Origin: Lentisphaeria bacterium
GTDB taxonomy: Bacteria; Verrucomicrobiota; Lentisphaeria; Victivallales; UBA1829
DNA: 64,000 bases
Assembly (NCBI GenBank): GCA_017503375.1
Contig: JAFVTF010000008.1
Coordinates: 64 to 64,063 of the forward strand
Reading direction: 5' to 3'
Part shown: piece by piece, positions 581 to 20,864 of the stretch
Position numbering within the stretch: the first letter of the stretch is position 1
Layout: each line of letters opens with the position of its first letter
Program-made: the position numbers and the translations under genes
The notes under the pieces: generated by a model
Told to the model about the DNA's origin: nothing
Databases searched by the model: none
The model's input: the letters and a program-made list of their open reading frames with translations, nothing else

Positions 581-688
581 AACAGAAGGGTCTGTTGCAA
601 AATCTTAGTGTTTTTTGGAAGAGCTGTTTTGTACGGAGTGAACAGAAACATGCCGGGGGAAGTGCCGGCTGATTTCTCAAAAGAAATA

Positions 689-1116
689 GCTCTGTTCCAT
701 ATATAGGTTGAAAAATCCTTCTGCTAAATTCAGAGGTAATTTCAAAAGTCTTCAAAAGTGTCTGAAAATTCTTGACTTGATCTAAAAATGGAGTATTTTC
801 GGCTTGTCCTCCGGAGTTTTAACGAAGGAGGATGGAAAGCCACGCTCAAACTACCGTTTTCCATCTCATCAGCAATCTCTTTTCAATCAAAATTTGCCTG
901 ACTAAAAAAATTACCTCTTTAAGGTGTTTTTTGATTTTTGTGTGACAAAAATCGGAATGCCGCAACAAGGTTTCTAAAAAGATGTTGGGATTCGGGACAG
1001 AAAGGAAAATTTTTCCTTGTATATTATCTCCCCCCGTTATCAAATGGCAGCAGCTTCCTTAAAAGTTTTTTTCCCTTCTTCCCCGATCACAAATCAACTT
1101 TTATGAGAAACAGAAC
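689..1116. repeat. Long copy (A) of the hairpin-repeat family, carrying a nested ~190-bp insertion
   Basis: The left end gctctgttccatatataggttg...ttctgct and the right part ttgatttttgtgtgacaaaaatcggaatgccgc...tttttcccttcttccccgatcacaaatcaac...gagaaacagaac are collinear with copy C (59799-59999). It fills the convergent gap between the TM2 gene and the ABC-F gene. Confidence 0.7.
732..918. repeat. Nested module bounded by inverted repeats AGAGGTAATTT / AAATTACCTCT inside copy A
   Basis: Its first ~45 nt (agaggtaatttcaaaagtcttcaaaagtgtctgaaaattcttgac) recur at 19884-19928 with a few mismatches. Inside are TTGACT-N16-TATTTT and an 8-bp stem GATGGAAA...TTTCCATC. Confidence 0.55.
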
Positions 1117-1121
1117 TTTAT

Positions 1122-6602: not shown

Positions 6603-8486
6603 TCAGCTCAACATAACCTGTCCGCCGGTGACAGGGATTGCTTGTCCGGTTTCAAACTGCTGATTAACGCAGTAGATGATTGCCTTTGCCACATCAGCGG
6701 GGAAACATCCGCGCTGGATGGGGGACTTGGAAAGATAGAATGCCTTCACATCTGCAATGGTCTTGGCACCGGGAACTTTGCCTGCATCAAGATACTGCTT
6801 GAAGAGACCGCGTTCCGGATCGGACCACAGCGGACCGTCGTAGAAGTTTCCGGGGCAGACACTGTTGACTTTGATGTTGTTTGCAACCAGTTCCAGTGCA
6901 AAGCTCTGAGTCATACCGATGGTACCGAACTTACCTGCTGCATAAGCTGCATTCTTGTTGGAACCGACAAGTCCGCTCTTGCTGTTCACCTGAACAAAGT
7001 CTGTCCAGATTCCGGATGCCTTGTTCTGAATTGCCATCATCGGTGTGAAATGTTTGACACAAAGGAAATATCCGGTGTAGTTGACTGCGGTAACAAAATC
7101 CCATGCTTTCTTTTCAAAGGTGGGTGTGGGACCAGCCTTCAGAACACCTGCATTGGAAACAAAGAGGTCAAGTCCGCCGACTTCGCGGATGACTTCATCA
7201 GCCATTGCTGCAACAGAATCTTCGCTGGAGACGTCAACAGAAACAGCAGAAGCATTTTTGCCGAACTTGGCAGCTGCAGCTTTTGCACCTTCCAGGTTCA
7301 AATCAGCGATCACAACGTGAGCACCGGCTTTCACCAGTTCTTCTGCGATACCGAAACCAAATCCCTGAGCACCGCCTGTGACCAGAGCGATCTTTCCGCA
7401 GAGAACGCCTGCAGAATCCATCTGTTTTCTGCGTTTGGCTTCTGCACCCCAGTTTTCAATGAAGATCCGCATGGGATCGGGCATAACGGCTGCACCGCCG
7501 AATGCTTTTGCAAGACCGTTGATGGCTGCGGCGTCTGCCAGAAGAGCTTTTGCTGCGCGCATCACAGGAACATTTTTACCGACTGCAAACATTGCTTTGC
7601 CGGGAACGATGACTGCTTTGGGATAGAATCCGTATTTTGCACGGTAAGCTTCCACAACGTCTTTGTTGATCACATCTGTGACGAGGGGATAGGAACCGGC
7701 ATAAACAAGATGGTCGGGGGTAAACGGACCGTCAGCCATATCATAAAGATTCATTGCACCGACAGCTGCGGGGACGCCGTCAACAGCACAGAGACCGCGG
7801 AGCAGAGGAGCGTTTTCGCGGATGAAATCAGCATCGGGAGCGGTTCCTGCGGGAACTTCAGCGCCTTTTGCCTTGCAGTAATCAGCAAGTTTCTGCTTCA
7901 TGGATTCATAAATTGCTTCGATTTCAGCCACATCTTCACCGGCAACAAAGACACCGTGATTCTGCATGAACATCACCTGCGGCTGTTTACCGTATTTTGC
8001 CGCATACTGTTCAAATGCTTTCACAGATTCAAGAGCAAGAGTCAAACCGGGGTTGACCGGACCGAGCCAGAGAGCTTCGGGGAACAGTTCAGCACAGATG
8101 GCTTCACCATTCTTGCCGCAGGACATGGCATTGACAAGTGTGGGATGAAGGTGAACGACATAAGAAGCATCGAACAATGCATGGAGAATGGCTTCCACAG
8201 AGGGAGTTTTTCCGCTGTTGTCGATCACGGAGAAAACAGCATAACGGTTAACGAGATCTTCTTTAAGTGCTTCAGGTGCGCTGGCGCAATCGGTAAGGGA
8301 GCGTTTCAGCAGAGCGATATCCATCTGCACGAAATCTTCCGGCTGCATGTCTGCAAGCATTTTTCCACTGGGTTTGACATAAAGGATTCCGTCCTTTTTC
8401 CAGGAGGTGTTTCCGCCGCCTGCGAGAACGTATTCCGGGTTTGCTCCCATCTTCCGGGAGATCTCTGCGATTTTTTCCAATGACAT
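6603..8486 (-). CDS. Bifunctional class II aldolase / short-chain dehydrogenase (rhamnulose-1-phosphate aldolase/alcohol dehydrogenase-type architecture)
   Basis: N-terminal aldolase/adducin-like domain (GGGNTSWK). C-terminal SDR with TGGAQGFGFG Rossmann motif and YAAGK (YxxxK). The track start at 8516 is TTG. ATG at 8486 follows GGAGT by 7 nt. Confidence 0.85.
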   Translation of the reverse strand: MSLEKIAEISRKMGANPEYVLAGGGNTSWKKDGILYVKPSGKMLADMQPEDFVQMDIALLKRSLTDCASAPEALKEDLVNRYAVFSVIDNSGKTPSVEAILHALFDASYVVHLHPTLVNAMSCGKNGEAICAELFPEALWLGPVNPGLTLALESVKAFEQYAAKYGKQPQVMFMQNHGVFVAGEDVAEIEAIYESMKQKLADYCKAKGAEVPAGTAPDADFIRENAPLLRGLCAVDGVPAAVGAMNLYDMADGPFTPDHLVYAGSYPLVTDVINKDVVEAYRAKYGFYPKAVIVPGKAMFAVGKNVPVMRAAKALLADAAAINGLAKAFGGAAVMPDPMRIFIENWGAEAKRRKQMDSAGVLCGKIALVTGGAQGFGFGIAEELVKAGAHVVIADLNLEGAKAAAAKFGKNASAVSVDVSSEDSVAAMADEVIREVGGLDLFVSNAGVLKAGPTPTFEKKAWDFVTAVNYTGYFLCVKHFTPMMAIQNKASGIWTDFVQVNSKSGLVGSNKNAAYAAGKFGTIGMTQSFALELVANNIKVNSVCPGNFYDGPLWSDPERGLFKQYLDAGKVPGAKTIADVKAFYLSKSPIQRGCFPADVAKAIIYCVNQQFETGQAIPVTGGQVMLS

Positions 8487-8620
8487 TTCCTGAACTCCTT
8501 CCTTGAAATTTTTCAATCCATGTCTGATTGTTGAATAAATATCATCGGGTAAAATAGCATAAAAATGGACTTTTTACAAGTTGAATTGGAAATAAAACAG
8601 GCTTTATTTTATCATTTTCC

Positions 8621-8664
8621 GGGAAAATAAAAAGATCCCGGACTCTCTCAGTGGAAAATCCGGA
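8621..8664 (-). terminator. Weak intrinsic terminator candidate after the giant-paralogue operon
   Basis: On the minus strand a short CCGGA stem with a 16-nt loop is followed by TCTTTTTATTTT. It lies 30 nt after the stop codon at 8694. Confidence 0.3.
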
Positions 8665-8693
8665 ATCTTTCTATGAACATTCTACACTAAAAT

Positions 8694-11600
8694 TTACTTG
8701 ATATCAATCTGATAATCAAAAATCTTCACTTCAGAATCTTTCGGTATAATAATCAAAGGTCTGATCTGTTTCACCTTGGGATCAGTGATCTGGAACATAA
8801 TACCGTTCTGTTTCATCTCCGGTGTCAGCTCAACCGGCTTGGAAACAACCTTGAATCCGCCGTAACCGTAATCCGTATAGCTGAAGAAACCGAAACTCGC
8901 TTTCCCTTTTCCGGAGGCCTTGAACCGGATTGTCACAAATGTTCCAGGTTTTACCTTGACCGCTGACGGATCAAAGTAAATGAAATATTTCTTTCCGGTG
9001 AATTCTATGGAATCATGATTCAACTTCAACAGCTGATCTTTTTCCTTCGATAATGCGGCATTTGAAAACGTCCATTTTGTCAAGCTGGAAAAATCAAGAA
9101 TTTCTTTTTTGATTTCAAAACGATAATCGGAGACCTTGACGTTTGCCCCCTGCGGAACAATAATCATCGGACGGACCTGTTTTACCTTGGAATCAGTGAT
9201 CTTGAACACGATTCTGTGCTGTTTGGCTGCAGAGGTTGCATTAACCGTCTGTGAAATTGTCTTCGCTCCGCTGTATTTGTAATCCGTATAGGAAATAAAA
9301 CCGAAGGGAATCTTGCCTTTTCCGGATGCCTTGAAGCTGATTTCTGCAAACATGCCCGGGGTTACTTTTATTGCGGTCGGATTGAAATAAATCAGATATT
9401 TCTTCCCGTTCAGTTCAACGGAATCACCGCTGACTTTCAAATACTGATTCTTCGCCCTGGCAGCTTCAAGATTCGTGAAGGTCCACCGGGTTATGGGAAG
9501 CTGTTTTTCCGGAGTTTCAACAACTTTATCGGAATCAAGAATTTCCAATTTGTAATTCCGGATCACGATTTCCGCATCTTTTGCCAGTGAAAAGAGTTCG
9601 CGGACCGCAACTGTTCCCGCTTTTGTGATGGGGAATACCAGACGGAACTGCTGTTCTTTGTCTGTCAAATACAACTCTTTCCAGAGCTGTCCATGCATTC
9701 CGTAACCGTAATCTTTGTTCAGGAACAATCCGAAGGAGACCTTTCCTTTTCCTTTTGCATTGAAGGTTATGACAACAGATTTTCCGGTTGTGAGATCATG
9801 GGAGTTTTCATGCATGAACATACGGTTCTTCAGATATCCGCGGAAAGTAAGCCCGTTTCCGTCGGGGTGATACAACCGGCTTCCTTTGGTTCCGCTGAAC
9901 CGTTCGGCTGCGTTTGTAAGAACCCAGCCCTGTTCAAACGGGATTTTCGGCAGTTCAACCTTCGGCGGATTGCCGAGAACAACCATACGGTATCCCATTT
10001 TCGGAACAGTCAGAGTGATCTCATCCCCATTGGCTTTCAGCGGGGTTCTGTCGGGCCAGTTGATATAATTTCCACCTTTGACTTTCAAAACATCCCGGTT
10101 GAACTTGACTTTTCCGGTACGGTCAACTTTATCTTTGCTCAGGTTGGCAATCACAAACAGAACACTTCCGTTATCATGTTTGTAAGCGGAAACATAAACC
10201 TCTTTCATATCAGTGGATGCCGGAGGAGTATCATCGTAATAGGCATAGAAATCACTGTTGCCGTAATCGAACAAATCCAGTTCCTGACGGACACGGTCCA
10301 CTTCCCTGTTGTTGACCCACAGACGGCAGATGGGAACATCGTGAACCATACCGATCGCCATCAATTCCCGTGTGGCATCAGGCGTTTTTGTCATCTTGCC
10401 GCGCATTTCAGGCAGGAAGTAGGGAGCAATTCCCCACTGACGTCCGATGAATTCCGCACGGAACGTATCAAGGCTCATCACTTCCATATAAGATTTATCC
10501 GTAACCCATGCGGCAAAGGGATGTTCACCATCAAAATAACCGTCAAGCCAGCTCAGGACAGGGATATTCAATTTTGCAGACATGTGTCCCCAGATCCAGG
10601 TTTCCCACGGCTGCTTTTTGATGACAGAATACATCCGTTTGAAGAGCTGTCTCTGTGCCCGGATTGGATAAGTCGGATAAAAAATACCGTTTTCTTCATA
10701 TCCCACATTCGCATTTTTTCCGGCGTTTGCGTATGGATGAAGCTGGTCATAATAATAACCGTTGAGCTTATGCGCCTCTACAAAATTCTTTGCAGACCAC
10801 ACATAGAAATCTGCAAGACTCTGTACTGCCGGAGAACAGCAATACCAGTTTTTCTTCCAGCCGGAACGGGAGATATAAGGATCTTCAAAACCGAACCACC
10901 AGTGTTTCTTGAAGAAGACAGCTTCGGGGCGTTCTTCCGTGATAAATGTCGGAGCCGTATAGGGAGTGACTTTCACATTCTTTGCATGGAAAAATTTGAC
11001 CATGTCGGTATAATACTGCGGATCAGCAGCTTTCATAAAACCGGCCCCGGTCGTGAGCGGAGTATTCACAAATTCAAGATTTTTTCCATAGCCGTACATA
11101 CGGATCACACGGTTTTTCCGGGCATCATAGTTCTTGACCGGAGTCGCCTGAAGCATGAAATTCAATTTCCAGTTGGGCTTCACTTTCTGTCCGGGTTTGA
11201 TGATATTCAGACACAAGGTGACAGCATCTTTGGAACGGATGAACTGAACAGTATCTTTTCCTTTTTTATTGGGCCACATTTCATCGGATTCGCAGCACCA
11301 GAAAAGTCCGCGATAGTTATCGCCCAGCCAGCTGAAGGGCATCCAGGAACTGGATTCCACAACGCCATTTCCTTCGGGAACAGCTTTCGGCAAAACAACT
11401 TTGAGCACGCTGAACAGATGGCGGTACAAAGCATTTTTCTTGTTGACGGAGATATTCAAGCTCAAAGTATCAAAGGGAAGAGCTTTTCCATTCAGCGGCT
11501 TGAAGGTAACGTAAATGAATCCGTCATATTCCATTTCGCTGCGAATTTCAAAATCAACACCTCCGGCAGAGATCACTCCGACAATTGTTGCTTTTGTTCC

Positions 11601-12521
11601 GGAGAATTTTTCAAATTTGACAGGTCCTTTTGCTTTCCAGGTGAGAGGCTTTCCGTTTTTCATCATGGAAAACGCAATCGGCTGTTTCAAAAGCTGCTGT
11701 CCTTTGGCAACAATCTGTGTCGGCAAACCGTGGCTGCCAAAGGTATATTCCCGGTTCAGACAGGAAATGGTATTTCCCTTTTTCGTCATGGGCGTCCACG
11801 GCGGAAGAACTTCATCTTCCATTCCCAGCTTGTTGCCCATCCACTCCAGGGTGGGAATGATCATTTCATCCTTGACCTGAATCTTTTTCCCGGTATTCAG
11901 TACAAGTTCTGCGGAGAGCTGATATTTTCCGGGCGTATGAGGTTTCGGAAGAGCAAGTGTTGCTCTGGCAAGTGTACTGCCTTTCCGGAATTTCAACGGA
12001 GCTTTCTTTCCATTGAATACAGCTGTTCCGGAAATTTTTTCTGCTGAAATACCTGTATTTTTGATATCGGTAATGATTGTAATGGTATTGTCATCGGGGT
12101 CAATCGTGTAATCCAGTTTGACTTTATCAGCCGAGAACTGAGCGGTGGGAGCTTTTTCAGCAACATCCAGATTCACGAAAATATCGAAAAAGAATTTGCC
12201 GTCAAGCTGAACCATTCCGGCCATATTGTATCTGCCCGGCTTCGGGAGCGGAAGAACACAGAACCCTTTTCCATTGACAAATTTTTCCTCTTTCCGGATT
12301 TTTGTTCCCTGAACATAGCAGACCAGCTTGATGCGGCTGTCCGGAACCGGAGTTTTTCCGGTATCAAAGGTGATGAAGATCTTTTTCTGTGCATAATCCA
12401 CATAGAACTCCATCTTACTGGCTTCCTGACAGAGCGGGTGCAATGCAGGAACATTCTGCGCCTGAGCCGGAATCATCCACACGGCAGCAAGCAATGAAAC
12501 AATCCATAATAAATGCTTCAT
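8694..12521 (-). CDS. Giant secreted glycoside-hydrolase-like protein (paralogue 1, 1275 aa) with three C-terminal beta-sandwich modules
   Basis: Signal peptide MKHLLWIVSLLAAVWMIPAQA. Two N-terminal ~100-aa repeats. Central region with LPPWTP and WCCESDEMW motifs (DUF6067/GH-like; the family needs an HMM check). Collinear with the ORF at 12534-15968. Confidence 0.8.
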   Translation of the reverse strand: MKHLLWIVSLLAAVWMIPAQAQNVPALHPLCQEASKMEFYVDYAQKKIFITFDTGKTPVPDSRIKLVCYVQGTKIRKEEKFVNGKGFCVLPLPKPGRYNMAGMVQLDGKFFFDIFVNLDVAEKAPTAQFSADKVKLDYTIDPDDNTITIITDIKNTGISAEKISGTAVFNGKKAPLKFRKGSTLARATLALPKPHTPGKYQLSAELVLNTGKKIQVKDEMIIPTLEWMGNKLGMEDEVLPPWTPMTKKGNTISCLNREYTFGSHGLPTQIVAKGQQLLKQPIAFSMMKNGKPLTWKAKGPVKFEKFSGTKATIVGVISAGGVDFEIRSEMEYDGFIYVTFKPLNGKALPFDTLSLNISVNKKNALYRHLFSVLKVVLPKAVPEGNGVVESSSWMPFSWLGDNYRGLFWCCESDEMWPNKKGKDTVQFIRSKDAVTLCLNIIKPGQKVKPNWKLNFMLQATPVKNYDARKNRVIRMYGYGKNLEFVNTPLTTGAGFMKAADPQYYTDMVKFFHAKNVKVTPYTAPTFITEERPEAVFFKKHWWFGFEDPYISRSGWKKNWYCCSPAVQSLADFYVWSAKNFVEAHKLNGYYYDQLHPYANAGKNANVGYEENGIFYPTYPIRAQRQLFKRMYSVIKKQPWETWIWGHMSAKLNIPVLSWLDGYFDGEHPFAAWVTDKSYMEVMSLDTFRAEFIGRQWGIAPYFLPEMRGKMTKTPDATRELMAIGMVHDVPICRLWVNNREVDRVRQELDLFDYGNSDFYAYYDDTPPASTDMKEVYVSAYKHDNGSVLFVIANLSKDKVDRTGKVKFNRDVLKVKGGNYINWPDRTPLKANGDEITLTVPKMGYRMVVLGNPPKVELPKIPFEQGWVLTNAAERFSGTKGSRLYHPDGNGLTFRGYLKNRMFMHENSHDLTTGKSVVITFNAKGKGKVSFGLFLNKDYGYGMHGQLWKELYLTDKEQQFRLVFPITKAGTVAVRELFSLAKDAEIVIRNYKLEILDSDKVVETPEKQLPITRWTFTNLEAARAKNQYLKVSGDSVELNGKKYLIYFNPTAIKVTPGMFAEISFKASGKGKIPFGFISYTDYKYSGAKTISQTVNATSAAKQHRIVFKITDSKVKQVRPMIIVPQGANVKVSDYRFEIKKEILDFSSLTKWTFSNAALSKEKDQLLKLNHDSIEFTGKKYFIYFDPSAVKVKPGTFVTIRFKASGKGKASFGFFSYTDYGYGGFKVVSKPVELTPEMKQNGIMFQITDPKVKQIRPLIIIPKDSEVKIFDYQIDIK
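8697..9940 (-). repeat. Three tandem ~130-aa coding modules (approx 9540-9940, 9100-9497, 8697-9080)
   Basis: Modules 2 and 3 align closely: (I/L)T(R/K)WTF(T/S)N...GKKY(L/F)IYF(N/D)P(T/S)A(I/V)KV(T/K)PG...FKASGKGK...SYTDY.Y.G...KV(S/K).(Y/F)D?Y..(E/D)IK. Module 1 is more diverged. Confidence 0.7.
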
Positions 12522-12533
12522 GTTTTCCTCTCT

Positions 12534-15500
12534 TTATTTTTTAATTTGAATCTGATAATCTGTAATTTTTGCGTCTGTATCTTTCAGTACCATCATCATG
12601 GGACGAATCTGTTTGATGGCAGGATCTTTGATCTGGAAACGCAGCATACATTCCTGCATTCCAGGCTTCACTTTCACATAAGTTCCAGCATTGTTCAACC
12701 CGCCGTAACCGTAATCGGTATAGCTGAGATATCCAAGTTTGATCTGTCCTTTTCCGGAAAATTTACATTTCACGATAACTGTATCTCCGGTCTTGACTTT
12801 CAGCGGTGTCTGCTGGAAATAGATGAAGAATTTCTTTCCGGTCAGATGAAGAACGTTCCCGTTTTCCTTTGCATATTGATCCAATACGCTCCGCAATGCA
12901 GGTTCGGCAATGGTCCAGTTTGCAAAAGGAGTTCCCCCTTTCAACTCCATCGGTTCAGCTTCTTCTCCGGTCTTTGCCACCGTGATTTTGCAATCATAAA
13001 TGGTAACTTCTGCACCTTTTTCCAGTGAGATCATGTGACGGACTGCTTTCACCCCAGCCTTGTCAATGGGGAAATGCAGACGGTACTGCTGCGGTTTATC
13101 GCTCAACGCAACACCTTTCCAAATCTGTCCGGCAATATCATAAGCATAATCTTTGTTAAGATAAAGCCCCATCTTGAACACGCCTTTTCCTTTTGCGGTG
13201 AAGTCCATGGTGACGGTCTGTCCGGGAAGCGCATCCGTCAGCCGTTCATGCATGAACATTCTGAACTTGTCCACGCCGAAAAATTCAGCTCCGGTATGAC
13301 TGTTCAGCAGACGCATAGTCTTTGCAGAATCTTTCAGACGGTCCTTGAAGTTCACAAGCACCCAATCCTGTCCGAAGGGAGGATTCGGCAGTTTGATATC
13401 CGGCGGATTGCCGAGAACGATCATCCGGTATCCCATTTTCGGAACAGTCAGCTTAATGGTATCGCCATCGGTTTTCAGCGGAGTTTTATCCGGCCAGTTG
13501 ATATACTTTCCGGGTTTGACTTTCAGAATATCACGGTTGATCCGGATGGTTCCGGTACGGTCCAGTTTTTCCTTGCTCAAGTTGGCAACATAGAAGAGAA
13601 CACTTCCGTTATCATGTTTGTAAGCGGAAATATAAACATCCTTCATATCCGTTGCTGCCGGGGGAACATCATCGTAATAGGCATAAAAATCACTGTTGCC
13701 GTAATCAAACAAATCCATTTCCCGCTGAATCCGGTCAAGCTCATGACCGTTGCACCACAAACGGCACATGGGAATGTCATGAACCATACCGATCGACATC
13801 AGCTCCCGGGTGGGTTCTGATTCTTTGATATATTTACCTCTGTATTCCGGCAGGAAGAAGGGCGCAAGTCCCCACTGACGTCCGATGAATTCAGCACGAA
13901 CCGTATCAAGACTCATGACTTCCATATAAGACTTGTTCTGAACCCATGCGGCAAAGGGATGTTCTCCATCGAAATAACCATCCACCCAGCTGAGAGCGGC
14001 AATATTCATTTTGGCAGACATGTGCGCCCAGACCCAAGTTTCCCGGGGCTGTTTCTTGATGACTGTATAAAGCCGTTTGAACAGATTTCTCTGTGCCCGG
14101 ATGGGATAGGTCGGATAGTAAATCCCGTTATCTTCGTACCCGGTTCCTGCGCTCTTCCCGGCGTAAGCATACGGATGGAACTGGTCATAATAGAACCCGT
14201 TGAGTTTATGCTGTTCGATAAACTTTTTGGCATTCCAGAGTACAAAATCCGCATATCCTTTTCCGGCAGGAGAAGCACAATACCATGTTTCATCCCAGCC
14301 GGAACGGAGAATGGCGGGATCTTCAAACCCGAACCACCAGTATTTCTTGAAGAAAATACTTTCCGGAGCAGCTTCGGTAATAAACGTGGGAGCGGTATAC
14401 GGCGTAACCAGAATTCCCCGTTTCTGACGGGCTGCAACATCGTAGGAATAACGTTCCGGATCACGTGCTTTGTAAAAACCGCAGCCCACTGTGGTCAGCG
14501 GATACATGATGAATTCCAGATTTCTGCCGACACCGTAAGTCCGGATTTTCCGGGCCTTGCGTGCATCGTAATTCTTCACAGGCGTCGCCATCAGCATGAA
14601 GGAAAGATTCCAGTTCTTCTTGATCTTCTGTCCGCGCTTGATCACATTCAAACGCAATGTCACAGAATCATTATCCCGGACAAATTCCACAGCATTACCT
14701 TTTTTATTGGACCACATTTCATCGGATTCACAGCACCAGAAAAGTCCGCGGTAATTATCCCCCAGCCATGCAAAGGGACGCCATTCGCTGGTTTCAACGA
14801 TTCCCTTTCCGGCAGGAACTGCTTTTGGAAGAACAACTTTGAACACGCTGAACAAGTGACGGTAAAGAGCATTTTTCTTATTGACAGGCAATTCCAGACT
14901 CAAAGCATCGAACGGAAGAGGCTTGCTGTTCAACGGTTTCACTGTGATGTAAATAAAACCGTCATATTCCATTTCGCTGCGGATTTCAAAATCGGTATTC
15001 CCCGCAGAAATTTTGCCGATGATTGTCGCTTTGGTATCTGTAACTTTTTCAAACTTCACACCTTTTGCTTTCCAGTTCAACGGTTTCCCGTTTTTGGACA
15101 TTTTCAGTGTGATGGGGGATTTCAGCAGAGGCTGACCTTTTGCAATGATCTGATCAGGCAAACCGTGTGCACCGAACATATATTCCCGGTTGAGACAGAA
15201 CAGAGAATTTCCTTTTCTTTTGATGGGAGTCCACGGCGGAAGAACTTCATCTTCCATCCCGATCTTATTGCCCATCCATTCCAGAGAAGGAATCGTGACA
15301 TTCTTTTTGATCCGGATTTTTTTCCCGGACTTTAAAGAAAGATCCGCCTCAATAAAAAATGTGCCAGGGGTGTGCGGTTTCAGCAGAGGAAGTTCCGTAC
15401 TTGCAATGGTACTGCCTTTTCTGAACTTCAAAGCACCTTTCTTTCCCTGAAATGTAACAGATCCGGCAACAAGTTCCGCTGAAACACCGGTATCTTTGAT

Positions 15501-15968
15501 ATCTGTTGTTACGGAAATCGTATTTTTATCGGGATCGAAGGAATACAAAAGTTTTACCTTTTCCGGAACGAACTGGGCGGCAGGAGCTTTTTCTGCAATT
15601 TCCAGATTCACAAAAATATCAAAGAAGAACTGTCCGTCGAGGCGAACCATTCCTGCCATACTGTATCTGCCCGGTTTCGGCATGGGAAGAACACAGCTTG
15701 CTTTGCCGTTGACAAATTTTTCCTGTTTCCGGTAAGGCGTTCCCTGAATATAACACTCCAGCAGGATCTTACTGTCAGGGACAGGCGTATTTCCGGTATC
15801 AAATGAGATGAACACCTTTTTTTGAGTATAATCGACGTAAAATTCCATCTTGCTTGCTTCCTGACAAAGCGGATGCAGTGCAGGAACGTTTTTCTGTTCC
15901 GCATTTACTGCGGCAGGCAATAGGGAACACAACAATAACGGGATGAATAAAAAAAACTGTTTTTTCAT
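12534..15968 (-). CDS. Giant secreted glycoside-hydrolase-like protein (paralogue 2, ~1144 aa) with two C-terminal modules
   Basis: Collinear with 8694-12521 (shared NVPALHPLCQEASKMEFYVDY..., WCCESDEMW, NSDFYAYYDD). Start set at ATG 15968 (MKKQFFLFIPLLL signal peptide) rather than the track start at 16013, which would overlap the upstream gene. Confidence 0.8.
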   Translation of the reverse strand: MKKQFFLFIPLLLCSLLPAAVNAEQKNVPALHPLCQEASKMEFYVDYTQKKVFISFDTGNTPVPDSKILLECYIQGTPYRKQEKFVNGKASCVLPMPKPGRYSMAGMVRLDGQFFFDIFVNLEIAEKAPAAQFVPEKVKLLYSFDPDKNTISVTTDIKDTGVSAELVAGSVTFQGKKGALKFRKGSTIASTELPLLKPHTPGTFFIEADLSLKSGKKIRIKKNVTIPSLEWMGNKIGMEDEVLPPWTPIKRKGNSLFCLNREYMFGAHGLPDQIIAKGQPLLKSPITLKMSKNGKPLNWKAKGVKFEKVTDTKATIIGKISAGNTDFEIRSEMEYDGFIYITVKPLNSKPLPFDALSLELPVNKKNALYRHLFSVFKVVLPKAVPAGKGIVETSEWRPFAWLGDNYRGLFWCCESDEMWSNKKGNAVEFVRDNDSVTLRLNVIKRGQKIKKNWNLSFMLMATPVKNYDARKARKIRTYGVGRNLEFIMYPLTTVGCGFYKARDPERYSYDVAARQKRGILVTPYTAPTFITEAAPESIFFKKYWWFGFEDPAILRSGWDETWYCASPAGKGYADFVLWNAKKFIEQHKLNGFYYDQFHPYAYAGKSAGTGYEDNGIYYPTYPIRAQRNLFKRLYTVIKKQPRETWVWAHMSAKMNIAALSWVDGYFDGEHPFAAWVQNKSYMEVMSLDTVRAEFIGRQWGLAPFFLPEYRGKYIKESEPTRELMSIGMVHDIPMCRLWCNGHELDRIQREMDLFDYGNSDFYAYYDDVPPAATDMKDVYISAYKHDNGSVLFYVANLSKEKLDRTGTIRINRDILKVKPGKYINWPDKTPLKTDGDTIKLTVPKMGYRMIVLGNPPDIKLPNPPFGQDWVLVNFKDRLKDSAKTMRLLNSHTGAEFFGVDKFRMFMHERLTDALPGQTVTMDFTAKGKGVFKMGLYLNKDYAYDIAGQIWKGVALSDKPQQYRLHFPIDKAGVKAVRHMISLEKGAEVTIYDCKITVAKTGEEAEPMELKGGTPFANWTIAEPALRSVLDQYAKENGNVLHLTGKKFFIYFQQTPLKVKTGDTVIVKCKFSGKGQIKLGYLSYTDYGYGGLNNAGTYVKVKPGMQECMLRFQIKDPAIKQIRPMMMVLKDTDAKITDYQIQIKK

Positions 15969-15991
15969 ACGTGCAACCCTTATGGCGTGTT

Positions 15992-16624
15992 TTAGAGATT
16001 CCAACCTGTGCAATTTGACATTTCTGTCATTGCTTCAGTCAGGGATTCTACATGTCCATCAAGGAATGTCATATTTCCACGACTGCTGTGGGGAGCAAAG
16101 AAATTTACCACATACTGATTGGTGGAAAGGGTTGTTCTCTTGCAGAAATACTGATTGGCACTATTGAATTCCCGTAATCTCGGATAGTTATTGCAGGTAC
16201 AGCCTGTCATGTAATACATGCCGGCAGGACGTTTGAAAGCATTGATCTTCTTCGGATTGTAGAACTGATGATAGTTCAGTGCAAGTGAGGTCCCCCGGTA
16301 AACTTTATTATTGCTTTTGTAGGAAAAACGGGTGTCGGGACAGCTGGATTTTCCCTGCTCCGGATTCAGATAACCTAAATATCTCAAAACTCCGCGCCAT
16401 TCAGAGTACTGCGGAGTAGATAAAACGACCCAAACGACCCAGTCTTCATAATCTGTGCTGTACTGCAACACGCTGAGCATTGTTTGTTTTTGCATGTTCA
16501 TGCAGTCTGCCCCGCGACCTTTGGCACGGGCATTGTTCAGGGCGGGCAGAAGCATTCCTGCCAGAATTGCAATGATGGCGATCACAACCAGCAGCTCGAT
16601 CAGGGTAAATCTTGTTTTTTTCAT
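15992..16624 (-). CDS. Type IV pilin-like pseudopilin with C-terminal H-X9-DG motif
   Basis: The N-terminus [33 protein letters not shown] is a class III signal/methylation motif of TIGR02532 type. C-terminal [12 protein letters not shown] is H-X9-DG (TIGR04294 type). AAGGAG RBS. Confidence 0.85.
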
Positions 16625-16649
16625 TAGATTCTCTCCTTATGTTAATTTT

Positions 16650-17687
16650 TTAACTTTGTTTTTTTCTTTGTATCGAAGAGTGTCTGATCTGAAGTGAGAC
16701 AGACAATAACTGATTTTGTATTTTTTTCCCTTTTTTCTTTTCGATGGCATCAATGATGGAATCAGTGACAATCTTTCCCATTTTTTCAAAATCCTGAACA
16801 ACACTGGAAAGCATGGGATAAGTCGTTTCAGAGATCATGGAACCGCCGAATCCGATCAGCGAAAAAACCTCCGGAACATGATACCCTTTAAAAAATGCAA
16901 TGTTATTCAATGCCGATGCAAGAACATCTGATTCACAAATCACGCCATCCACTTGATTTTTCAGCAAATCCGATAACACCGATTCCATATATTTCAAATC
17001 ATGGGAACGGGAATAGTCAATCCGCTGAAGATACGGTGTTTCCTCCGGATAAATCTTCCGGATTCCGGACTCAAATCCGGAAATACGGCGTATTTTATAC
17101 TCAATATCCGGAATCACTTCTGATTTTCCGGTGTAAAGATAAACAATTTTTCGGTGTCCGCTCTCTTTCAGATAACGGACAGATTCCATCACTCCGGCAG
17201 CGTCATCTGTCGTAACTCCGATCCCATCCGGATTGCTTAAATTCACAGTTCCGTAAGGAATTTTTTCATGGTCCAGCAATTCTGCCAACGGTTCAATCTG
17301 TCTCAGCTGGGAAACGTGAAAAATCACTCCGGCAACGCGCCATCCGGTGAGTTTCCGCAACAAAGCTTCCGGCGAATCTCCAATATGATGAACAATCAGA
17401 GTATATCCCCGTTCTCCCGCTGCTTCGATCACGCCATTCTGAATCCGTCCGGTATATTCCACGGTTCCCATATCAGAGTGAACAAATGCCAGAACATTAC
17501 TGTGTTTTTTCCCGATGGCAGCCGCCATTTGATTTTTACTGTATCCCAACCGGGAGGCTGTCTCCAGAATCAGCTGACGCGTCTCCGGACGCAACGATTG
17601 CGCACGGGGATGGTCATTCAAAACCTGGGAGACCGAACACAAATTGATCCCTGTCTCCCGGGAAATGTCTTTGAGGGTAACAGCCAT
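16650..17687 (-). CDS. LacI-family transcriptional regulator
   Basis: N-terminal HTH VTLKDISRETGINLCSVSQVLN. A periplasmic-binding-protein-like sugar-binding core of ~280 aa follows. Confidence 0.85.
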   Translation of the reverse strand: MAVTLKDISRETGINLCSVSQVLNDHPRAQSLRPETRQLILETASRLGYSKNQMAAAIGKKHSNVLAFVHSDMGTVEYTGRIQNGVIEAAGERGYTLIVHHIGDSPEALLRKLTGWRVAGVIFHVSQLRQIEPLAELLDHEKIPYGTVNLSNPDGIGVTTDDAAGVMESVRYLKESGHRKIVYLYTGKSEVIPDIEYKIRRISGFESGIRKIYPEETPYLQRIDYSRSHDLKYMESVLSDLLKNQVDGVICESDVLASALNNIAFFKGYHVPEVFSLIGFGGSMISETTYPMLSSVVQDFEKMGKIVTDSIIDAIEKKKGKKIQNQLLSVSLQIRHSSIQRKKQS

Positions 17688-17707
17688 GATTGCTTATCAC
17701 TCCGTTT

Positions 17708-19684
17708 TTACTCTGCAAATTCCACTGCCGCAAGACCGTAACCGCAAATCTTCGGAACAGTAAACATTACATGATCATTTTCCTGTACAAACGGAATTTC
17801 TTCTTCCGCAGGAGCCATGACAACACGCTTGACCGTTCTGCCATCCAAACGCAGTTTCAGCTTGATATTATATGCTTCCACAGCTTCTTCCACAATCAGC
17901 ATTTCTCCGCGCTTTTCCGGCAGATAATTCAGCAGATGCACCATCATTCTTCCGGGCTGTTCTGAAACGATCGCTCTGGCAAAGGACGGGAAACCGGATT
18001 CCACCTGAAGCAGAGGATCCGGCAGCAGACGCTTCAGCATTGCCCCGAACACATCACGCAATTCCACTGATGCCGCTGTATTATATCCGTCAAACAGCTT
18101 TCCGGAACAATAAGCAACCTGCCCCGTAAACGTCACAAAAGGAAATTCCGTAACCTTGTCCGGCGGCGTATAGAAGAAGGAATAAACTCCATCCCATTTA
18201 TGATCATAGTAAGGAGCAATAATATTTCCGGCAACAACTGTTCCTGTCAGAGCTTCTGTTTCCACACAATCAGAATTTACAGAAAGCGGCAGCGCGGGAA
18301 CCAGTTCTTTGTAATCGCCTGTCATAGTGAAATATGCTGGATTGAATGTTTTTTCCTTCCGGAAACGGACACCCCATTCCTTTTCAAAGCAGAAGACTTT
18401 CTTTTCCGGATCAAGTCCGGATTCTCCGGTTGCAATCAGCTTTCCGCCATTCTTCAGAAATTCCGCAACTTTTTTCTGAAGGGAATCTGTCAGAAGAATA
18501 TCATCCGGCAAAACAATAACCTTGTATTTCGACCAATCATTCAGTTCATCAATACAATCAAACTGCATTTTCAGTTCACAGAGCATGCGGACTGCGGATT
18601 TTGTGCTCCGTGTTGCCATTGTCCCGGAAAACAGAACAGCAAGATCAACAGGATTTTTTGCGCCGCGATACCAGGGGTCATACTGCTTCAATGTTCCGTA
18701 CACTTTTTTGAGCCTTTCCACAATTCCTCTGTGGTAAAGTCCGCTGGGGTGAATATGATCGCCCACGTTCGGGCGCATTCCGTTGGCAAGACCATAGAAC
18801 AAATCATATTCGATGGCAGCATCAGTTCTCAAACTGCCGAAATCGCCCCAGGCATAAAAACGCCCGGTCATATTGAACACAGGTTCCCCCTTTGAAACAG
18901 TCCGCAGATAACGGGACCGGATCGGCAATGCATCATATCCCCAGTTCGGATAGGTGGGCAGACACTCACATTCCAGATAAGAACCGTACTTCAAATTGTC
19001 TCTTGCAGAAAGCCCCAGACAATACATCAGCAATCCATCTCTGCGGGGCTGAACGATTTCAGAAATCTCCGCAGCCAGACTCTTTGCGGAAATCAATGCG
19101 TACTCCGCCACTTCATTATCATTTTCGGGATTCATCCCCAGTTTTCTCATTCCTTCCATGCAGTGACGGCAATAGCAGGGAAATGCGTTGAAGCTGTCAA
19201 GCAGGAATCCGGAAACTGGATATTTTTCTTTCACTTCTTTGATCAGACTGAGAATATATTGTCTGTAAGGGGAATTGATACACATGATTCTGGCATAGGG
19301 CGTAATCATGCTGTTTATCACTTCCGGATGGAAAAACTCTCCGTTTTTTCCGATCTGACACCATTCCGGATGAACCACGCCGTCTTCATTGCTCAAACCG
19401 CAGTTGAGATAAGCAGTAACTTTAACTCCCACTTTATTGCAGGCTGCAACAAGGTCCCCGAAATAATCATGTCCCGGCTTCATGGAAGGATGACGGATTC
19501 CGATTTTCGTATCATAATAACAGAATCCCTGATTGCATTTTGCCGGAAAACCGACGAGTTCGGCTCCGATCTCTTTCACGGATGCAGCAAACGAATCTGC
19601 ATCAAAGTTGTGTCCGACATTATAACATGCCTGCATCGTGTGGTTATCAAAAAACAAAACATATTCCGGATAACTCATAAACAT
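17708..19684 (-). CDS. Cytoplasmic TIM-barrel glycosidase-like protein (GH29/GH42-like N-terminus plus amidotransferase-like C-terminal domain; family uncertain)
   Basis: No signal peptide. The segment FDADSFAASVKEIGAELVGFPAKCNQGFCYYDTK resembles the FDA..W...AK.AGAKY...KHHDGF..W motif of fucosidase-type barrels. The second in-frame ATG at 19678 has better RBS spacing (GGGAG + 6 nt). Confidence 0.6.
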   Translation of the reverse strand: MFMSYPEYVLFFDNHTMQACYNVGHNFDADSFAASVKEIGAELVGFPAKCNQGFCYYDTKIGIRHPSMKPGHDYFGDLVAACNKVGVKVTAYLNCGLSNEDGVVHPEWCQIGKNGEFFHPEVINSMITPYARIMCINSPYRQYILSLIKEVKEKYPVSGFLLDSFNAFPCYCRHCMEGMRKLGMNPENDNEVAEYALISAKSLAAEISEIVQPRRDGLLMYCLGLSARDNLKYGSYLECECLPTYPNWGYDALPIRSRYLRTVSKGEPVFNMTGRFYAWGDFGSLRTDAAIEYDLFYGLANGMRPNVGDHIHPSGLYHRGIVERLKKVYGTLKQYDPWYRGAKNPVDLAVLFSGTMATRSTKSAVRMLCELKMQFDCIDELNDWSKYKVIVLPDDILLTDSLQKKVAEFLKNGGKLIATGESGLDPEKKVFCFEKEWGVRFRKEKTFNPAYFTMTGDYKELVPALPLSVNSDCVETEALTGTVVAGNIIAPYYDHKWDGVYSFFYTPPDKVTEFPFVTFTGQVAYCSGKLFDGYNTAASVELRDVFGAMLKRLLPDPLLQVESGFPSFARAIVSEQPGRMMVHLLNYLPEKRGEMLIVEEAVEAYNIKLKLRLDGRTVKRVVMAPAEEEIPFVQENDHVMFTVPKICGYGLAAVEFAE

Positions 19685-19715
19685 CTCCCGTTTATTTTGC
19701 CAATAAATACCAATA

Positions 19716-19733
19716 AAGCTAAACGTTTAGCTT
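19716..19733. promoter_or_regulatory. Perfect 18-bp palindrome AAGCTAAACGTTTAGCTT, a LacI-family operator candidate
   Basis: Read directly. The core AAACGTTT is the classic LacI/GalR/CcpA-type centre. It lies 6 nt downstream of the predicted -10 and 32 nt upstream of the start codon at 19684. Confidence 0.65.
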
Positions 19734-19739
19734 CTAATT

Positions 19740-19768
19740 AATTTAACACTGTTTTAAATAAATGTCAA
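19740..19768 (-). promoter_or_regulatory. Sigma70-like promoter of the locus-1 operon
   Basis: The minus strand reads TTGACA (19768-19763), a 17-nt spacer, then TAAATT (19745-19740). Confidence 0.55.
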
Positions 19769-19816
19769 ATTTTTTTGAAAAAATATATTGATTTTTTTCT
19801 TTTTTTTTCATACACA

Positions 19817-19865
19817 AATAAATATAACAGTTGTTGTGGATTAATTCCAGTCATTTTGGCTGAAA
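19817..19865. repeat. 49-bp repeat, copy 1 (identical to 49027-49075)
   Basis: aataaatataacagttgttgtggattaattccagtcattttggctgaaa is identical base for base in both copies. Both lie in divergent intergenic regions. Confidence 0.85.
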
Positions 19866-19883
19866 CATTAAAGAAATAATGTT

Positions 19884-19948
19884 AGAGGCAATTCCAAAAG
19901 TCTTCAAAACTGTCTGAAAATTCTTGCCGGACTATTGAAATTACCTCT
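19884..19948. repeat. Short copy of the AGAGG(T/C)AATT-bounded module
   Basis: AGAGGCAATTCCAAAAG ... CTATTGAAATTACCTCT is a 17-nt imperfect inverted repeat around tcttcaaaactgtctgaaaattcttgccgga. It matches 732-776 with a few mismatches. Confidence 0.55.
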
Positions 19949-20084
19949 ATATGAAAAAAAAATCATTTTTTTTCTGTTTTGCATTTGTCTAATAAAAAAA
20001 AGAGATTATGTTACAGGTATAATACAGGTTCCGTATTTTCCGGAATAATTTTCTGTTGCAACATACAGACCCCAGGAGTTTTTT

Positions 20085-20864
20085 ATGTTTTTTGATTGTA
20101 AAATTACAGCACATGAGGTGATCAGCAGAGATTACCGCAGGATCCGGTTTTATGCGCCGGAAATCTGCCGCAGTGCGAAGCCCGGACAGTTTGTCCATGT
20201 TCAAATCCCGAATCTTTCAGACAGAATTCTCCGCAGACCGTTCAGTATCTGCGATATGGAAGATGATACTTTGACCGTTGTTTACAAAATCGTCGGTTCC
20301 GGAACAGCCCGGCTTGCAGATGCAGTTCCCGGAATGATGTGCAGCATCATGGGACCTCTGGGAACGTACTTCCCGGAAGCTGGGGAAGGTATGACTCCTG
20401 TTCTGATCGATGGCGGTTACGGTGCAGCCGCAACGCTTCCCATTGCCCGCCGCTGGAAACAGAAGGGGATTCTTCTGCTGGGCGCAAGAACACAGGATGA
20501 TGTACTTTTGACAGAGGAATACAAAGCTTGCGGTTACGATGTCCGTGTTGCAACTCAGGATGGTTCTGTGGGAACAAAAGGTCTTGTGACAGATTTGATT
20601 CCCGCTGCAATTGCTGATACGAACGGAAAATGCGTTTTCTATTCCTGCGGTCCAAACGGAATGTTGATGGCTGTCGGAAAACTGGCTCTGGAACAGAATG
20701 TGGAATGTTATCTGACACTGGATCATCAGATGTGCTGCGGAGTCGGAGCCTGTTTTGCATGTGTTGTTAAAGTAAAATCTGATTCTTCCCCGGATGGCTG
20801 GAGATATTCCAGAAGCTGCTGTGAAGGACCTGTCTATCCCGCCAAGGAGGTGTGGTATGCCTGA
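20085..20864 (+). CDS. pyrK: Dihydroorotate dehydrogenase B electron-transfer subunit
   Basis: Ferredoxin-reductase-like fold with a C-terminal Cys cluster (CCGVGACFAC...C) for 2Fe-2S. AGGAG RBS. The stop overlaps the pyrD start (ATGCCTGA). Confidence 0.85.
   Translation: MFFDCKITAHEVISRDYRRIRFYAPEICRSAKPGQFVHVQIPNLSDRILRRPFSICDMEDDTLTVVYKIVGSGTARLADAVPGMMCSIMGPLGTYFPEAGEGMTPVLIDGGYGAAATLPIARRWKQKGILLLGARTQDDVLLTEEYKACGYDVRVATQDGSVGTKGLVTDLIPAAIADTNGKCVFYSCGPNGMLMAVGKLALEQNVECYLTLDHQMCCGVGACFACVVKVKSDSSPDGWRYSRSCCEGPVYPAKEVWYA

Follow-up and report, generated by a model that had tools for sequence, protein, structure and literature searches.

The alginate cluster of Verruconatronum alginivorum, which holds most of the alginate-induced proteins, includes a gene for a pulG-like pseudopilin, of which the same genome encodes no fewer than 67 homologues (PMC13274419). 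Alginate was also seen to induce a pseudopilin, and the authors suggested type II secretion of the lyases (PMC13274419, 2026). Here we describe an operon of similar outline in a 64,000-nucleotide stretch of DNA from a Lentisphaeria bacterium (contig C44, positions 64–64063; the whole stretch is called the window below), taken from an assembly of 3.6 Mb in 128 contigs that is 94% complete. The operon encodes an alpha-L-fucosidase of glycoside hydrolase family 151 (GH151), a LacI-family repressor, a pilin-like protein and two very large secreted proteins of the DUF6067 family, giant A and giant B. As in V. alginivorum, a pilin-like gene of a many-paralogue family lies inside an apparently regulated, substrate-specific cluster of exported enzymes, and there, too, the role of the pilin is only hypothesised. 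The two clusters differ in phylum, substrate and enzymes (alginate lyases in V. alginivorum), and the alginate cluster includes a putative uronate transporter.

The other close comparison is with the polysaccharide utilization loci (PULs) of Bacteroidota, which likewise are substrate-specific regulated cassettes, bring together downstream exo-glycosidases and enzymes that are secreted or displayed at the surface, and occur in many copies with differing enzymes. Unlike PULs, the cassettes described here have no SusC/SusD and no transporter, their recurrent partner is the pilin-like protein, and their finishing exo-glycosidases lack signal peptides. We favour, with moderate confidence, the reading that the operon is an autoregulated LacI-type glycan-harvesting cassette of a gut Lentisphaerota (Victivallales-like) bacterium, with secreted DUF6067 enzymes, a cytoplasmic GH151 enzyme and an assisting pilin. 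The closest relatives of the studied genes came from metagenome-assembled Lentisphaerae/Victivallales genomes (roe-deer caecum, goat rumen and digesters). In its regulation and catabolism the operon follows a conventional logic, and its gene families are already catalogued; what is unusual is that a pilin-like gene whose product has a non-canonical cleavage site is embedded in it, that it has no transporter, and that its enzyme family is uncharacterised and misleadingly named.

The five open reading frames (ORFs) follow one another on the minus strand, all in the same orientation, between a promoter and a terminator, from 19768 to 8627 (Table 1). An original prediction, made from the letters of this DNA, had proposed the order promoter, operator, glycosidase, LacI, pseudopilin, 1144-residue protein and 1275-residue protein with gaps of 12–25 nt, and all ORFs were found where it had placed them, separated by 20, 25, 23 and 12 nt. 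Every one of the five starts is preceded by a Shine-Dalgarno-like purine run. The likely true start of the first gene is the ATG at 19678, which lies 6 nt past a GGGAG at a better spacing and agrees with the start of the orthologue described below. A 1159-residue version of giant A starting from TTG was rejected; this ORF runs into the pilin gene and lacks a ribosome-binding site. No transporter gene was found from promoter to terminator, as the original prediction had noted, and no SusC-like or SusD-like genes were found among the five genes or in the scanned flanks.

On alignment evidence, the first gene is a GH151 alpha-L-fucosidase. It matched Protein Data Bank (PDB) entry 6tvk over its full length (residues 10–657 onto 35–688; phmmer, E = 2.1e-81), and in Pfam it matched GHL6 (E = 1.5e-22) and Glyco_hydro_42M. 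This entry, the first GH151 structure to be solved, is ALfuk2 from Paenibacillus thiaminolyticus, with D154 as nucleophile and E235 as acid/base (PMC10154630). Both residues are kept in the window enzyme: GFLLD163 aligned with GIFLD and ECE240CLP with ELESLP, placing Asp163 on D154 and Glu240 on E235, and the three-domain layout is shared as well. The two enzymes may differ at His503 of ALfuk2, a residue that complements the active site from the neighbouring monomer (PMC10154630); a Phe aligned there in the window enzyme, in a locally gappy stretch of the alignment with a His a few residues upstream. Signal peptides are absent from the first gene product and from its orthologue, consistent with the cytoplasmic glycosidase that had been proposed. 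The GH151 enzymes characterised so far cleave aryl-fucosides and fucosyl disaccharides and do not attack longer substrates (PMC10154630), a preference that fits the role of a cytoplasmic finishing enzyme.

In a comparative scan of one genome per species, the same five genes were found in the same order (GH151, LacI, pilin, giant, giant) at a locus of Lentisphaerae bacterium SIG79 (L001). The one-to-one orthologues were 83% (GH151), 75% (LacI), 71% (pilin), 77% (giant A) and 89% (giant B) identical, which means that the giants were duplicated before the two species separated. Synonymous codon differences outnumbered amino-acid-changing ones in each of the five genes, which points to purifying selection on all of them, the pilin included. 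The flanks differ: the window has an aldolase/dehydrogenase fusion gene after the operon, while L001 has a 614-residue gene before it and an ankyrin/WYL gene after it on the other strand. These comparisons support the view that the five-gene operon is a conserved, self-contained unit.

The fusion gene directly past the terminator (6603–8516, 637 residues) encodes a class II aldolase fused to a short-chain dehydrogenase (SDR) and has its own upstream region. Fusions of this type accompany rhamnose and fucose catabolism. As a candidate conserved neighbour the gene was rejected, since it is not a homologue of the 614-residue gene in L001; a link of the operon to deoxy-sugar catabolism genes is thus not conserved. 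Opposite the giants, the plus strand carries long antisense ORFs at 9693–12047 (784 residues), 13959–15335 (458 residues) and 13035–13820 (261 residues), which have no homology support and are best explained as by-products of the codon usage of the sense genes. Elsewhere in the window, a second locus encodes a LacI protein, a pilin and proteins of 182 and 1130 residues. Its 182-residue secreted protein (54661–55209) copies the N-terminal ~150 residues of the 1130-residue neighbour (E = 1.4e-37), and the latter (55234–58626) is not a member of DUF6067.

Table 1. Features of the operon in the window, with the predicted layout and candidate catalytic residues of the giants.
Feature	Position	Strand	Size or basis
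Sigma-70-type promoter, TTGACA-N17-TAAATT with TG extension	19740–19768	-	promoter scan and direct reading
Predicted LacI-type operator AAGCTAAACGTTTAGCTT, perfect 18-bp palindrome with central CG	19716–19733	.	direct reading
GH151-family alpha-L-fucosidase, no signal peptide, predicted cytoplasmic	17708–19684	-	658 aa
LacI-family repressor	16650–17687	-	345 aa
Pilin-like DUF1559/H-X9-DG protein	15992–16624	-	210 aa
Giant A, secreted DUF6067-family putative retaining glycosidase	12534–15968	-	1144 aa from ATG
Giant A: signal peptide; two Ig-like domains, residues 40–226; beta-sandwich 250–462; (beta/alpha)8 barrel 470–775			AlphaFold model
Giant A, C-terminal part: beta-sandwich 778–852; two ~130-aa beta-sandwich modules, 869–999 and 1018–1143			AlphaFold model
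Giant A, putative catalytic (beta/alpha)8 barrel, residues 470–775	13644–14561	-	AlphaFold model and alignments
Giant A, candidate nucleophile Asp595	14184–14186	-	codon checked
Giant A, candidate acid/base Glu669	13962–13964	-	codon checked
Giant B, tandem paralogue of giant A with a third C-terminal module	8694–12521	-	1275 aa
Giant B, candidate nucleophile Asp592	10746–10748	-	codon checked
Giant B, candidate acid/base Glu666	10524–10526	-	codon checked
Intrinsic terminator: 21-bp stem, 6-nt loop, U-rich 3' arm and tail	8627–8674	-	RNA fold

The pilin-like protein and its recurrent cassettes

The third gene lies between the repressor and the enzyme genes and not beside an assembly machinery. 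Its product begins with MKKTR|FTLIELLVV, in which Glu5 is present and Arg occupies position -1, and it matched N_methyl and DUF1559 in Pfam and the IV_pilin_GFxxxE and H-X9-DG models in NCBIfam, with N_methyl and TIGR02532 above their cut-offs. The pseudopilin that had been predicted directly upstream of the secreted giants thus corresponds to a pilin-like protein with the N-terminal methylation motif and the DUF1559/H-X9-DG tail, a member of a family specific to the Planctomycetota-Verrucomicrobiota-Chlamydiota (PVC) bacteria. The AlphaFold model (mean predicted local distance difference test score, pLDDT, 79.6) comprised an N-terminal helix of ~50 residues (8–58) followed by a small sheet of short strands. 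Our literature search on H-X9-DG and Victivallis returned only microbiome surveys.

The genome encodes 137 pilin-like proteins, of which 102 end with H-x9-DG. Their first 26 mature residues were almost invariant among the paralogues, while the heads were variable, with a mean column identity of 17%. Among the 132 paralogues with the motif, the residue at -1 was Ser in 23, Arg in 19, Cys in 19, Lys in 13, Asn in 11 and Gly in only two. Either the prepilin peptidase tolerates residues other than Gly, or an uncleaved helix keeps these proteins anchored. On other contigs, the genome has two matches to A24 prepilin peptidases and seven to secretins, indicating that a machinery for processing and assembly exists. 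One pilus or secretion assembly cluster (C4:29341–39439) contains a pilin-like gene, genes for a 601-residue protein and for membrane proteins, and a 989-residue ORF that overlaps a secretin match. By eye, the N-terminus of the 601-residue protein looks PilM-like, and the cluster is a candidate for a shared machine serving many pilin-like proteins.

Together with the pilin-like proteins, the genome encodes 26 giants and 24 LacI-family regulators. Linkage was assessed on a simple non-overlapping set of 3,148 genes, of which 129 (4.1%) are pilin-like. A pilin-like gene lies immediately upstream on the same strand of 12 of the 26 giants, where about one would be expected (binomial P = 1e-10), and within three genes of 18 of the 26. 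The linkage extends to other large proteins: a protein of at least 600 residues follows 84 of the 129 pilin-like genes, compared with 15% of all genes, and 70 of those 84 proteins have a signal-peptide-like N-terminus in a crude hydrophobicity test. The pilin gene is often preceded by a regulator gene.

Exo-glycosidases of several families stand beside the paralogous giants: GH20 on C39, GH36 on C56 and C22, GH78 on C91, GH38 and GH2 on C113, and GH106 on C23; the C39 giant locus also has a divergent GH151 gene. By reading of their N-termini, these partner enzymes have no recognisable signal peptide. The genome-wide pattern indicates that the operon is one instance of a repeated design consisting of a regulator, a pilin-like gene, a secreted DUF6067 protein and a varying glycosidase without a signal peptide, and that the genome has about 25 cassettes of this sort, the window operon among them. 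Giants of a shorter subfamily, with 1117–1160 residues (C75, C55, C126, C120, C45, C29 and C90), are regularly followed by a protein of conserved size, ~250–260 residues; two examples of this partner have N-termini resembling signal peptides, and one that was scanned had no Pfam match.

The order regulator, pilin, giant was also found in Planctomycetota, Phycisphaerae, Verrucomicrobiota and other Victivallales (L041, L044, L054, L063, L069 and L072), and a giant with a GH151 neighbour occurs at an Armatimonadota locus (L029). Among the relatives of the source genome the expansion is patchy: the two congeners, like some other genera of the family, have at least 19 matches, and further genera have none.

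What the pilin-like protein does can be read in two ways. It may be a glycan-capture or uptake element, either a substrate-specific pilin or an uncleaved anchored binder, that replaces a SusD-like or solute-binding function and is not a secretion helper; such a role would explain the absent transporter gene. Each cassette has one pilin-like gene, in keeping with the counts above (129 in the gene set, 84 heading a large protein and 70 of these proteins signal-peptide-like), and there is no transporter in this or the neighbouring cassettes. The variable heads behind a near-invariant N-terminal helix also fit a binder, Gly at -1 is absent in 130 of the 132 paralogues, so that the proteins may stay membrane-anchored, and the Pfam short name of DUF1559 is SBP_bac_10. 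The modelled head, however, is a small pilin-type domain and not a solute-binding-protein fold, no sugar-binding structure appeared among its matches, and the two A24 peptidases and seven secretin matches could serve to process and assemble the pilin-like proteins. We therefore consider a capture role somewhat unlikely, and prefer the reading in which the pilin-like protein assists the secreted enzymes of its cassette.

Promoter, operator and terminator

The promoter TTGACA-N17-TAAATT was the top promoter match in the region 8300–20200, with 10 of 12 positions matching, and the palindrome AAGCTAAACGTTTAGCTT begins 6 nt downstream of its -10 hexamer. The promoter and operator that had been placed before the first gene were thus both located, and the operator proved to be a perfect palindrome of 18 bp. 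No second copy of AAGCTAAACGTTTAGCTT was found in the 3.6-Mb genome at up to three mismatches, and the core TAAACGTTTA has two other genomic sites, both within coding regions. A co-regulated transporter marked by a second operator was accordingly rejected, there being no other site at up to three mismatches and both additional TAAACGTTTA cores being intragenic.

In L001 the upstream non-coding DNA has diverged, yet a promoter-like TTGACT...TATAGT stands at the equivalent place and is followed by CAGGCTAAACGTTTAGCCTG. This sequence keeps the 14-bp core GCTAAACGTTTAGC, and its flanks are altered on both arms such that the palindrome is preserved. The second gene, predicted to encode LacI, indeed encodes a full-length protein of this family: Pfam returned Peripla_BP_3 (7.9e-23) and Peripla_BP_1, the LacI helix-turn-helix (HTH) scored 23.2 bits, just below its 27-bit cut-off, and residues 3–338 aligned with the NCBIfam models RbsR, CcpA, GalR and PurR. 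All of these matches stayed below the equivalog cut-offs, suggesting an unnamed subfamily. The protein and its site resemble LacI/GalR/CcpA-type pairs in having an HTH and a sugar-binding domain, an operator that is palindromic around a central CG and lies over the transcription start, and autoregulation, with binding predicted in the present case; they differ in that the window repressor falls below each named equivalog cut-off.

These features support a local, autoregulated repressor-operator pair with the operator over the transcription start, autoregulation being expected because the repressor gene sits within its own operon. The predicted LacI control and operon status are backed by the conserved operator core, by the conserved order of the five genes despite unrelated flanks, and by the uniqueness of the operator in the genome.

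At the other end of the operon, a terminator candidate that had been described as weak turned out to be strong: the hairpin at 8627–8674 had a folding energy of -27.9 kcal/mol (z = -4.65), and none of 200 shuffled sequences was equally stable. It was not listed by a simple terminator scan; the scan found no hairpin terminator at any of the four gene junctions. An Rfam scan of 8300–20200 gave no match above threshold (the sole sub-threshold match was RAGATH-25, 22.6 bits against 49), which indicates that the long AT-rich leader holds no known riboswitch or small RNA. A 49-bp perfect direct repeat, AATAAATATAACAGTTGTTGTGGATTAATTCCAGTCATTTTGGCTGAAA, occurs at 19817–19865 and 49027–49075, both in AT-rich divergent intergenic regions; the first copy sits in the leader region upstream of the operon promoter.

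The five genes could alternatively form two transcription units, with the GH151 and LacI genes regulated and the pilin and giants read from internal promoters. A promoter-like ATGACA-N16-TAGAAT (10 of 12 positions) lies at 16072–16045, ~77 nt upstream of the start of giant A, and many paralogous pilin-giant pairs have no LacI gene directly upstream. Single matches of this kind weigh little, since the region holds 29 promoter-like matches compared with 19.5 ± 4.5 in shuffled sequences, a modest excess. The short gaps and terminator-free junctions also speak against separate units, as do the order and spacing of the five genes, which are kept in L001 despite different flanks. Separate transcripts are in our judgement unlikely, and we infer that the five genes are repressed by LacI and transcribed together.

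Family, fold and predicted catalysis of the giants

Published knowledge of the family of the giants is confined, as far as our search found, to a single mention: DSSM_1, a deep-sea protein of the PF19543 type, has a GH123-like N-terminal sandwich and a GH66-like barrel, has no DE motif and no DUF4091, and was set aside untested (PMC11087588). A search for the name DUF6067 yielded no publication, and PF19543 yielded only annotation-pipeline work (PMC13355591). The two giants of the window are 63% identical over 1138 residues (BLASTP), and the motifs LPPWTP and WCCESDEMW are present in both, in agreement with their proposed description as tandem paralogues. Both have Sec-type signal peptides (...VNA|EQ and ...AQA|QN); a lipoprotein signal in giant A was rejected by inspection, as LLLC does not fit the lipobox consensus.

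The predicted resemblance to DUF6067/GH123 proteins was confirmed for DUF6067. PF19543 (DUF6067, renamed GH123_N) matched giant A with 85.0 bits and giant B with 82.3 bits, far above the cut-off of 22; the match covered only positions 323–599 of the 969 in the model, and giant B also matched weakly at 842–924. A profile of 66 giant sequences aligned with the canonical 859-residue DUF6067 protein of the genome (C93) over 516 columns (hhalign, 98.6%, E = 7e-16). A word-indexed search returned 88 homologues, unnamed or hypothetical and most with an N-terminal LamG domain, from Victivallales, Armatimonadota, Kiritimatiellota, Bathyarchaeia and others, and the species-representative genomes hold 450 giant homologue loci. 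An exhaustive search with giant A retrieved 3,122 cluster representatives (clusters of 50% identity) at E <= 1e-3, or 2,222 at E <= 1e-10. The unit conserved among these spans residues ~225–855. Members of the family occur in Lentisphaerota, Armatimonadota, Planctomycetota, Verrucomicrobiota and even archaea. The giants share with DSSM_1 its domain pattern; they differ from the family at large in carrying two N-terminal immunoglobulin (Ig)-like domains and C-terminal ~130-residue modules, while most homologues carry LamG.

The AlphaFold model of giant A, built on the 66-sequence alignment, was confident (pLDDT 89.6; predicted template modelling score, pTM, 0.82) and places a (beta/alpha)8 barrel between beta-sandwiches (Table 1); the PF19543 match corresponds to the sandwich ahead of the barrel. 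The L001 orthologue of giant A has three of the C-terminal ~130-residue modules, as giant B does. Searched against the PDB with Foldseek, the model matched GH101 first (E = 1e-25), then lmo2446, GH31 (alpha-glucosidases and sulfoquinovosidases), GH36 (alpha-galactosidases and the A-antigen galactosaminidase, with a template modelling score, TM-score, of 0.47 on the target) and GH13. The GH101 enzymes (SpGH101, 3ecq/5a55; EngBF, 2zxq), the GH36 enzyme FpGalNase (9awt) and the GH31 enzymes were the best fold matches (E = 1e-25 to 1e-10, probability 1.0), and they share with the giants the order sandwich, barrel, sandwich followed by extra sandwich modules. Identity to the giants was just 8–12%, and no sequence-level homology was detected; the likeness is one of architecture and not of membership. 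GH101, GH36, GH31 and GH13 enzymes are retaining and act on alpha-linkages, and the GH101 and clan GH-D enzymes have an Asp nucleophile on barrel strand 4.

Stand-alone secreted copies of the ~130-residue module, of ~170 residues, occur at C22:2474–2992, C57:2176–2691, C23:20655–21152 and C43:12403–12936, and those on C22 and C57 directly adjoin other giants. Their occurrence suggests that the module is a mobile carbohydrate-binding-type module without a Pfam family.

Within the barrel, two acidic residues stood out. Asp595 and Glu669 were invariant in all 66 homologues across phyla and in all 27 genome sequences, which comprise the 26 giant paralogues and the canonical DUF6067 member and have ~20% pairwise identity; the N-termini of all 27 are hydrophobic and signal-peptide-like by eye. 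Glu669 is the sole invariant Glu column of the 66-sequence alignment. His649 is likewise invariant in the 27 genome sequences, and His649, Arg627, Tyr593 and His730-Asp731 are invariant or nearly so in the 66 homologues. In the model, Asp595 directly follows strand 591–594 and Glu669 follows strand 664–667, which places both at or just beyond C-terminal strand ends. Glu708 (FLPE) was rejected as the acid/base, being kept in only 49 of the 66 homologues and 6 of the 27 genome sequences.

A direct search of the PDB with the giant B sequence gave no match at E <= 1, and it took profiles to obtain matches to the barrel, which were weak. A profile restricted to the barrel (alignment A3, 44 sequences) matched the GH151 structure 6tvk best, followed by GH66 enzymes (cycloisomaltooligosaccharide glucanotransferases and dextranase) and a GH13 branching enzyme. 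The D-G-x-Y-x-D of the giants aligned with D-G-x-x-x-D of the GH151, GH66 and GH13 targets, with Asp595 on the target Asp. This Asp is the nucleophile in GH66 and GH13. In GH151 the Asp that aligned with Asp595 is the documented nucleophile (PMC10154630). Against a clean set of five GH151 proteins, the barrel profile gave an hhalign probability of 89.7% (E = 1.8e-6) over 136 columns, again with Asp595 on the GH151 nucleophile, and some giant homologues matched Pfam GHL6, a model that covers the GH151 catalytic domain. A further hhalign run, at 99.9% and with Glu669 within one residue of the acid/base, was disregarded as a homology test, as three DUF6067 proteins were among its templates.

The invariant residues and the remote homology lead us to predict that the giants are retaining glycosidases with Asp595 as nucleophile and Glu669 as acid/base, and that they form a secreted, multi-domain sister group of GH151. 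The barrel is a remote relative of ALfuk2, with Asp595 on the GH151 nucleophile; the giants are not members of GH151, as only ~136 columns align and they have in addition an N-terminal sandwich, Ig-like domains and C-terminal modules.

The giants might instead be non-catalytic surface adhesins or scaffolds that bind glycans and retain a glycosidase-like fold. More than 40% of each giant consists of Ig-like and carbohydrate-binding-module-like beta-sandwich modules, the C-terminal module also occurs as the stand-alone secreted proteins beside other giants, as expected of binding modules, and our literature search found no DUF6067 member with measured activity. The conservation of Asp595, Glu669 and His649 in paralogues of ~20% identity, and of the first two across phyla, would not be expected once catalysis was lost, and Asp595 and Glu669 lie at the strand ends that bear the catalytic carboxylates in (beta/alpha)8 glycosidases. 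The original prediction had named non-enzymatic adhesins lacking catalytic-domain homology as an outcome that would undo it; what we found is a confidently modelled barrel with an invariant Asp and an invariant Glu. An adhesin role is quite improbable, and the prediction of retaining glycosidases is retained.

The name of PF19543 points elsewhere. GH123 is defined by a DUF4091 (PF13320) region and a catalytic motif of consecutive Asp and Glu (Sumida et al. 2024, PMC11087588). The proposed hidden Markov model searches gave a split outcome: DUF6067 was found in the giants as described above, and the GH123 catalytic domain PF13320 (GH123_cat/DUF4091) matched neither giant at E <= 0.1. Translated in six frames and searched with PF13320, the whole genome gave C118:12654–14336 (E = 1e-114), C61:16814–18445 (E = 9e-105) and two weak sites, none of them a giant locus. 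The C118 and C61 proteins are bona fide GH123 enzymes of ~560 residues with the motif H[CI]SDEP and served as internal negative controls, to which the 66-sequence giant profile aligned with an hhalign probability of 0.2%. The Asp and Glu of WCCESDEMW (D416/E417) are kept in 36 and 23 of the 66 homologues, respectively, and lie between the sandwich and the barrel, and no GH123 structure was among the top 50 Foldseek matches.

That the giants are GH123 beta-N-acetylgalactosaminidases, working by substrate-assisted catalysis through an adjacent Asp-Glu pair, is hence highly improbable and at the level of family membership refuted by sequence comparison, although PF19543 is named 'Glycoside hydrolase 123, N-terminal domain' and matches both giants, one annotation resource equates it with GH123 (PMC13355591), and an S-D-E triplet stands inside WCCESDEMW of both: PF13320, profile homology, GH123 fold matches and a conserved counterpart of the consecutive DE motif are all missing. 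What the giants share with GH123 enzymes (NgaP, CpNga123, BvGH123 and NgaDssm) is a beta-sandwich ahead of a (beta/alpha)8 barrel, the sandwich being the part that the Pfam label names, and only for this sandwich is the predicted likeness to GH123 justified.

Proposed working of the cassette and its implications

We propose that, without inducer, the repressor would be bound to the 18-bp palindrome and block all five genes, among them the gene that encodes it. The inducer, which is probably a small sugar that contains fucose, would free the repressor, and one transcript would run from ~19735 to the terminator at 8627–8674. The giants would be exported via Sec, and their Ig-like and C-terminal sandwich modules would bind a complex extracellular glycan, probably fucosylated and alpha-linked, which they would cleave by retaining double displacement with Asp595/Glu669 (giant A) and Asp592/Glu666 (giant B). 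The products would be taken up by transporters encoded elsewhere, and the cytoplasmic GH151 enzyme would then strip fucose from them. Most probably the pilin-like protein would act in the envelope, where with a type II secretion or type IV pilus-like machinery it would export, retain or present the enzymes.

Several observations weigh against this reading. The operon has no linked transporter, and the guess at the substrate rests on the GH151 partner only. Canonical prepilin peptidases require Gly at -1, a position taken by Arg in the pilin-like protein and by Met in its L001 orthologue. The best PDB matches of the pilin model, full-length PilA4 (TM-score 0.58 on the target) and the PAK pilin, were not significant (E = 0.2–0.3). 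In a tree of the pilin heads, the giant-adjacent pilins required 13 state changes compared with 14–16 in 1,000 shuffles (P = 0.03); the clustering is marginal, and cognate co-evolution of pilins and enzymes is therefore not claimed. The promoter-like matches inside the operon, such as that just upstream of giant A, mean that the giants may also have some independent expression. For the giants, homology to GH151 is partial (136 columns, 89.7%), sequence matches of the barrel profile to the PDB are marginal (E = 1e-3 for 6tvk, ~1e-2 for the GH66 and GH13 structures), and whole-model TM-scores are low (0.2–0.47), the last because the proteins are multi-domain. The literature, as stated, yielded no DUF6067 member with a measured activity.

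A bolder idea, which we hold tentatively and think unlikely, is that the ~130 pilin-like genes lacking Gly at -1 are substrate-specific modules of a glycan-harvesting system typical of PVC bacteria that replaces SusC/SusD, and that the DUF6067 giants are a new family of glycoside hydrolases, secreted and sister to GH151, with 26 paralogues for many glycans. If this were true, the pilins of the cassettes would be built into one shared fibre, of the type II secretion or type IV pilus-like kind, or stay anchored, and would export, tether or present the enzyme or capture the glycan; the induction of a single LacI-type cassette would then adapt a common machine of the envelope to one glycan.

DUF6067/PF19543 is a large family whose database name points to the wrong enzyme family, and the operon offers a favourable entry to it, being compact, with its own repressor and operator, a fucosidase partner that narrows the substrates, an orthologous copy in a second species and explicit predictions of the catalytic residues. 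The cassette rule also makes the expansion of DUF1559/H-X9-DG proteins in PVC bacteria testable, as that of gut and environmental glycan degraders which may work without Sus-type systems.

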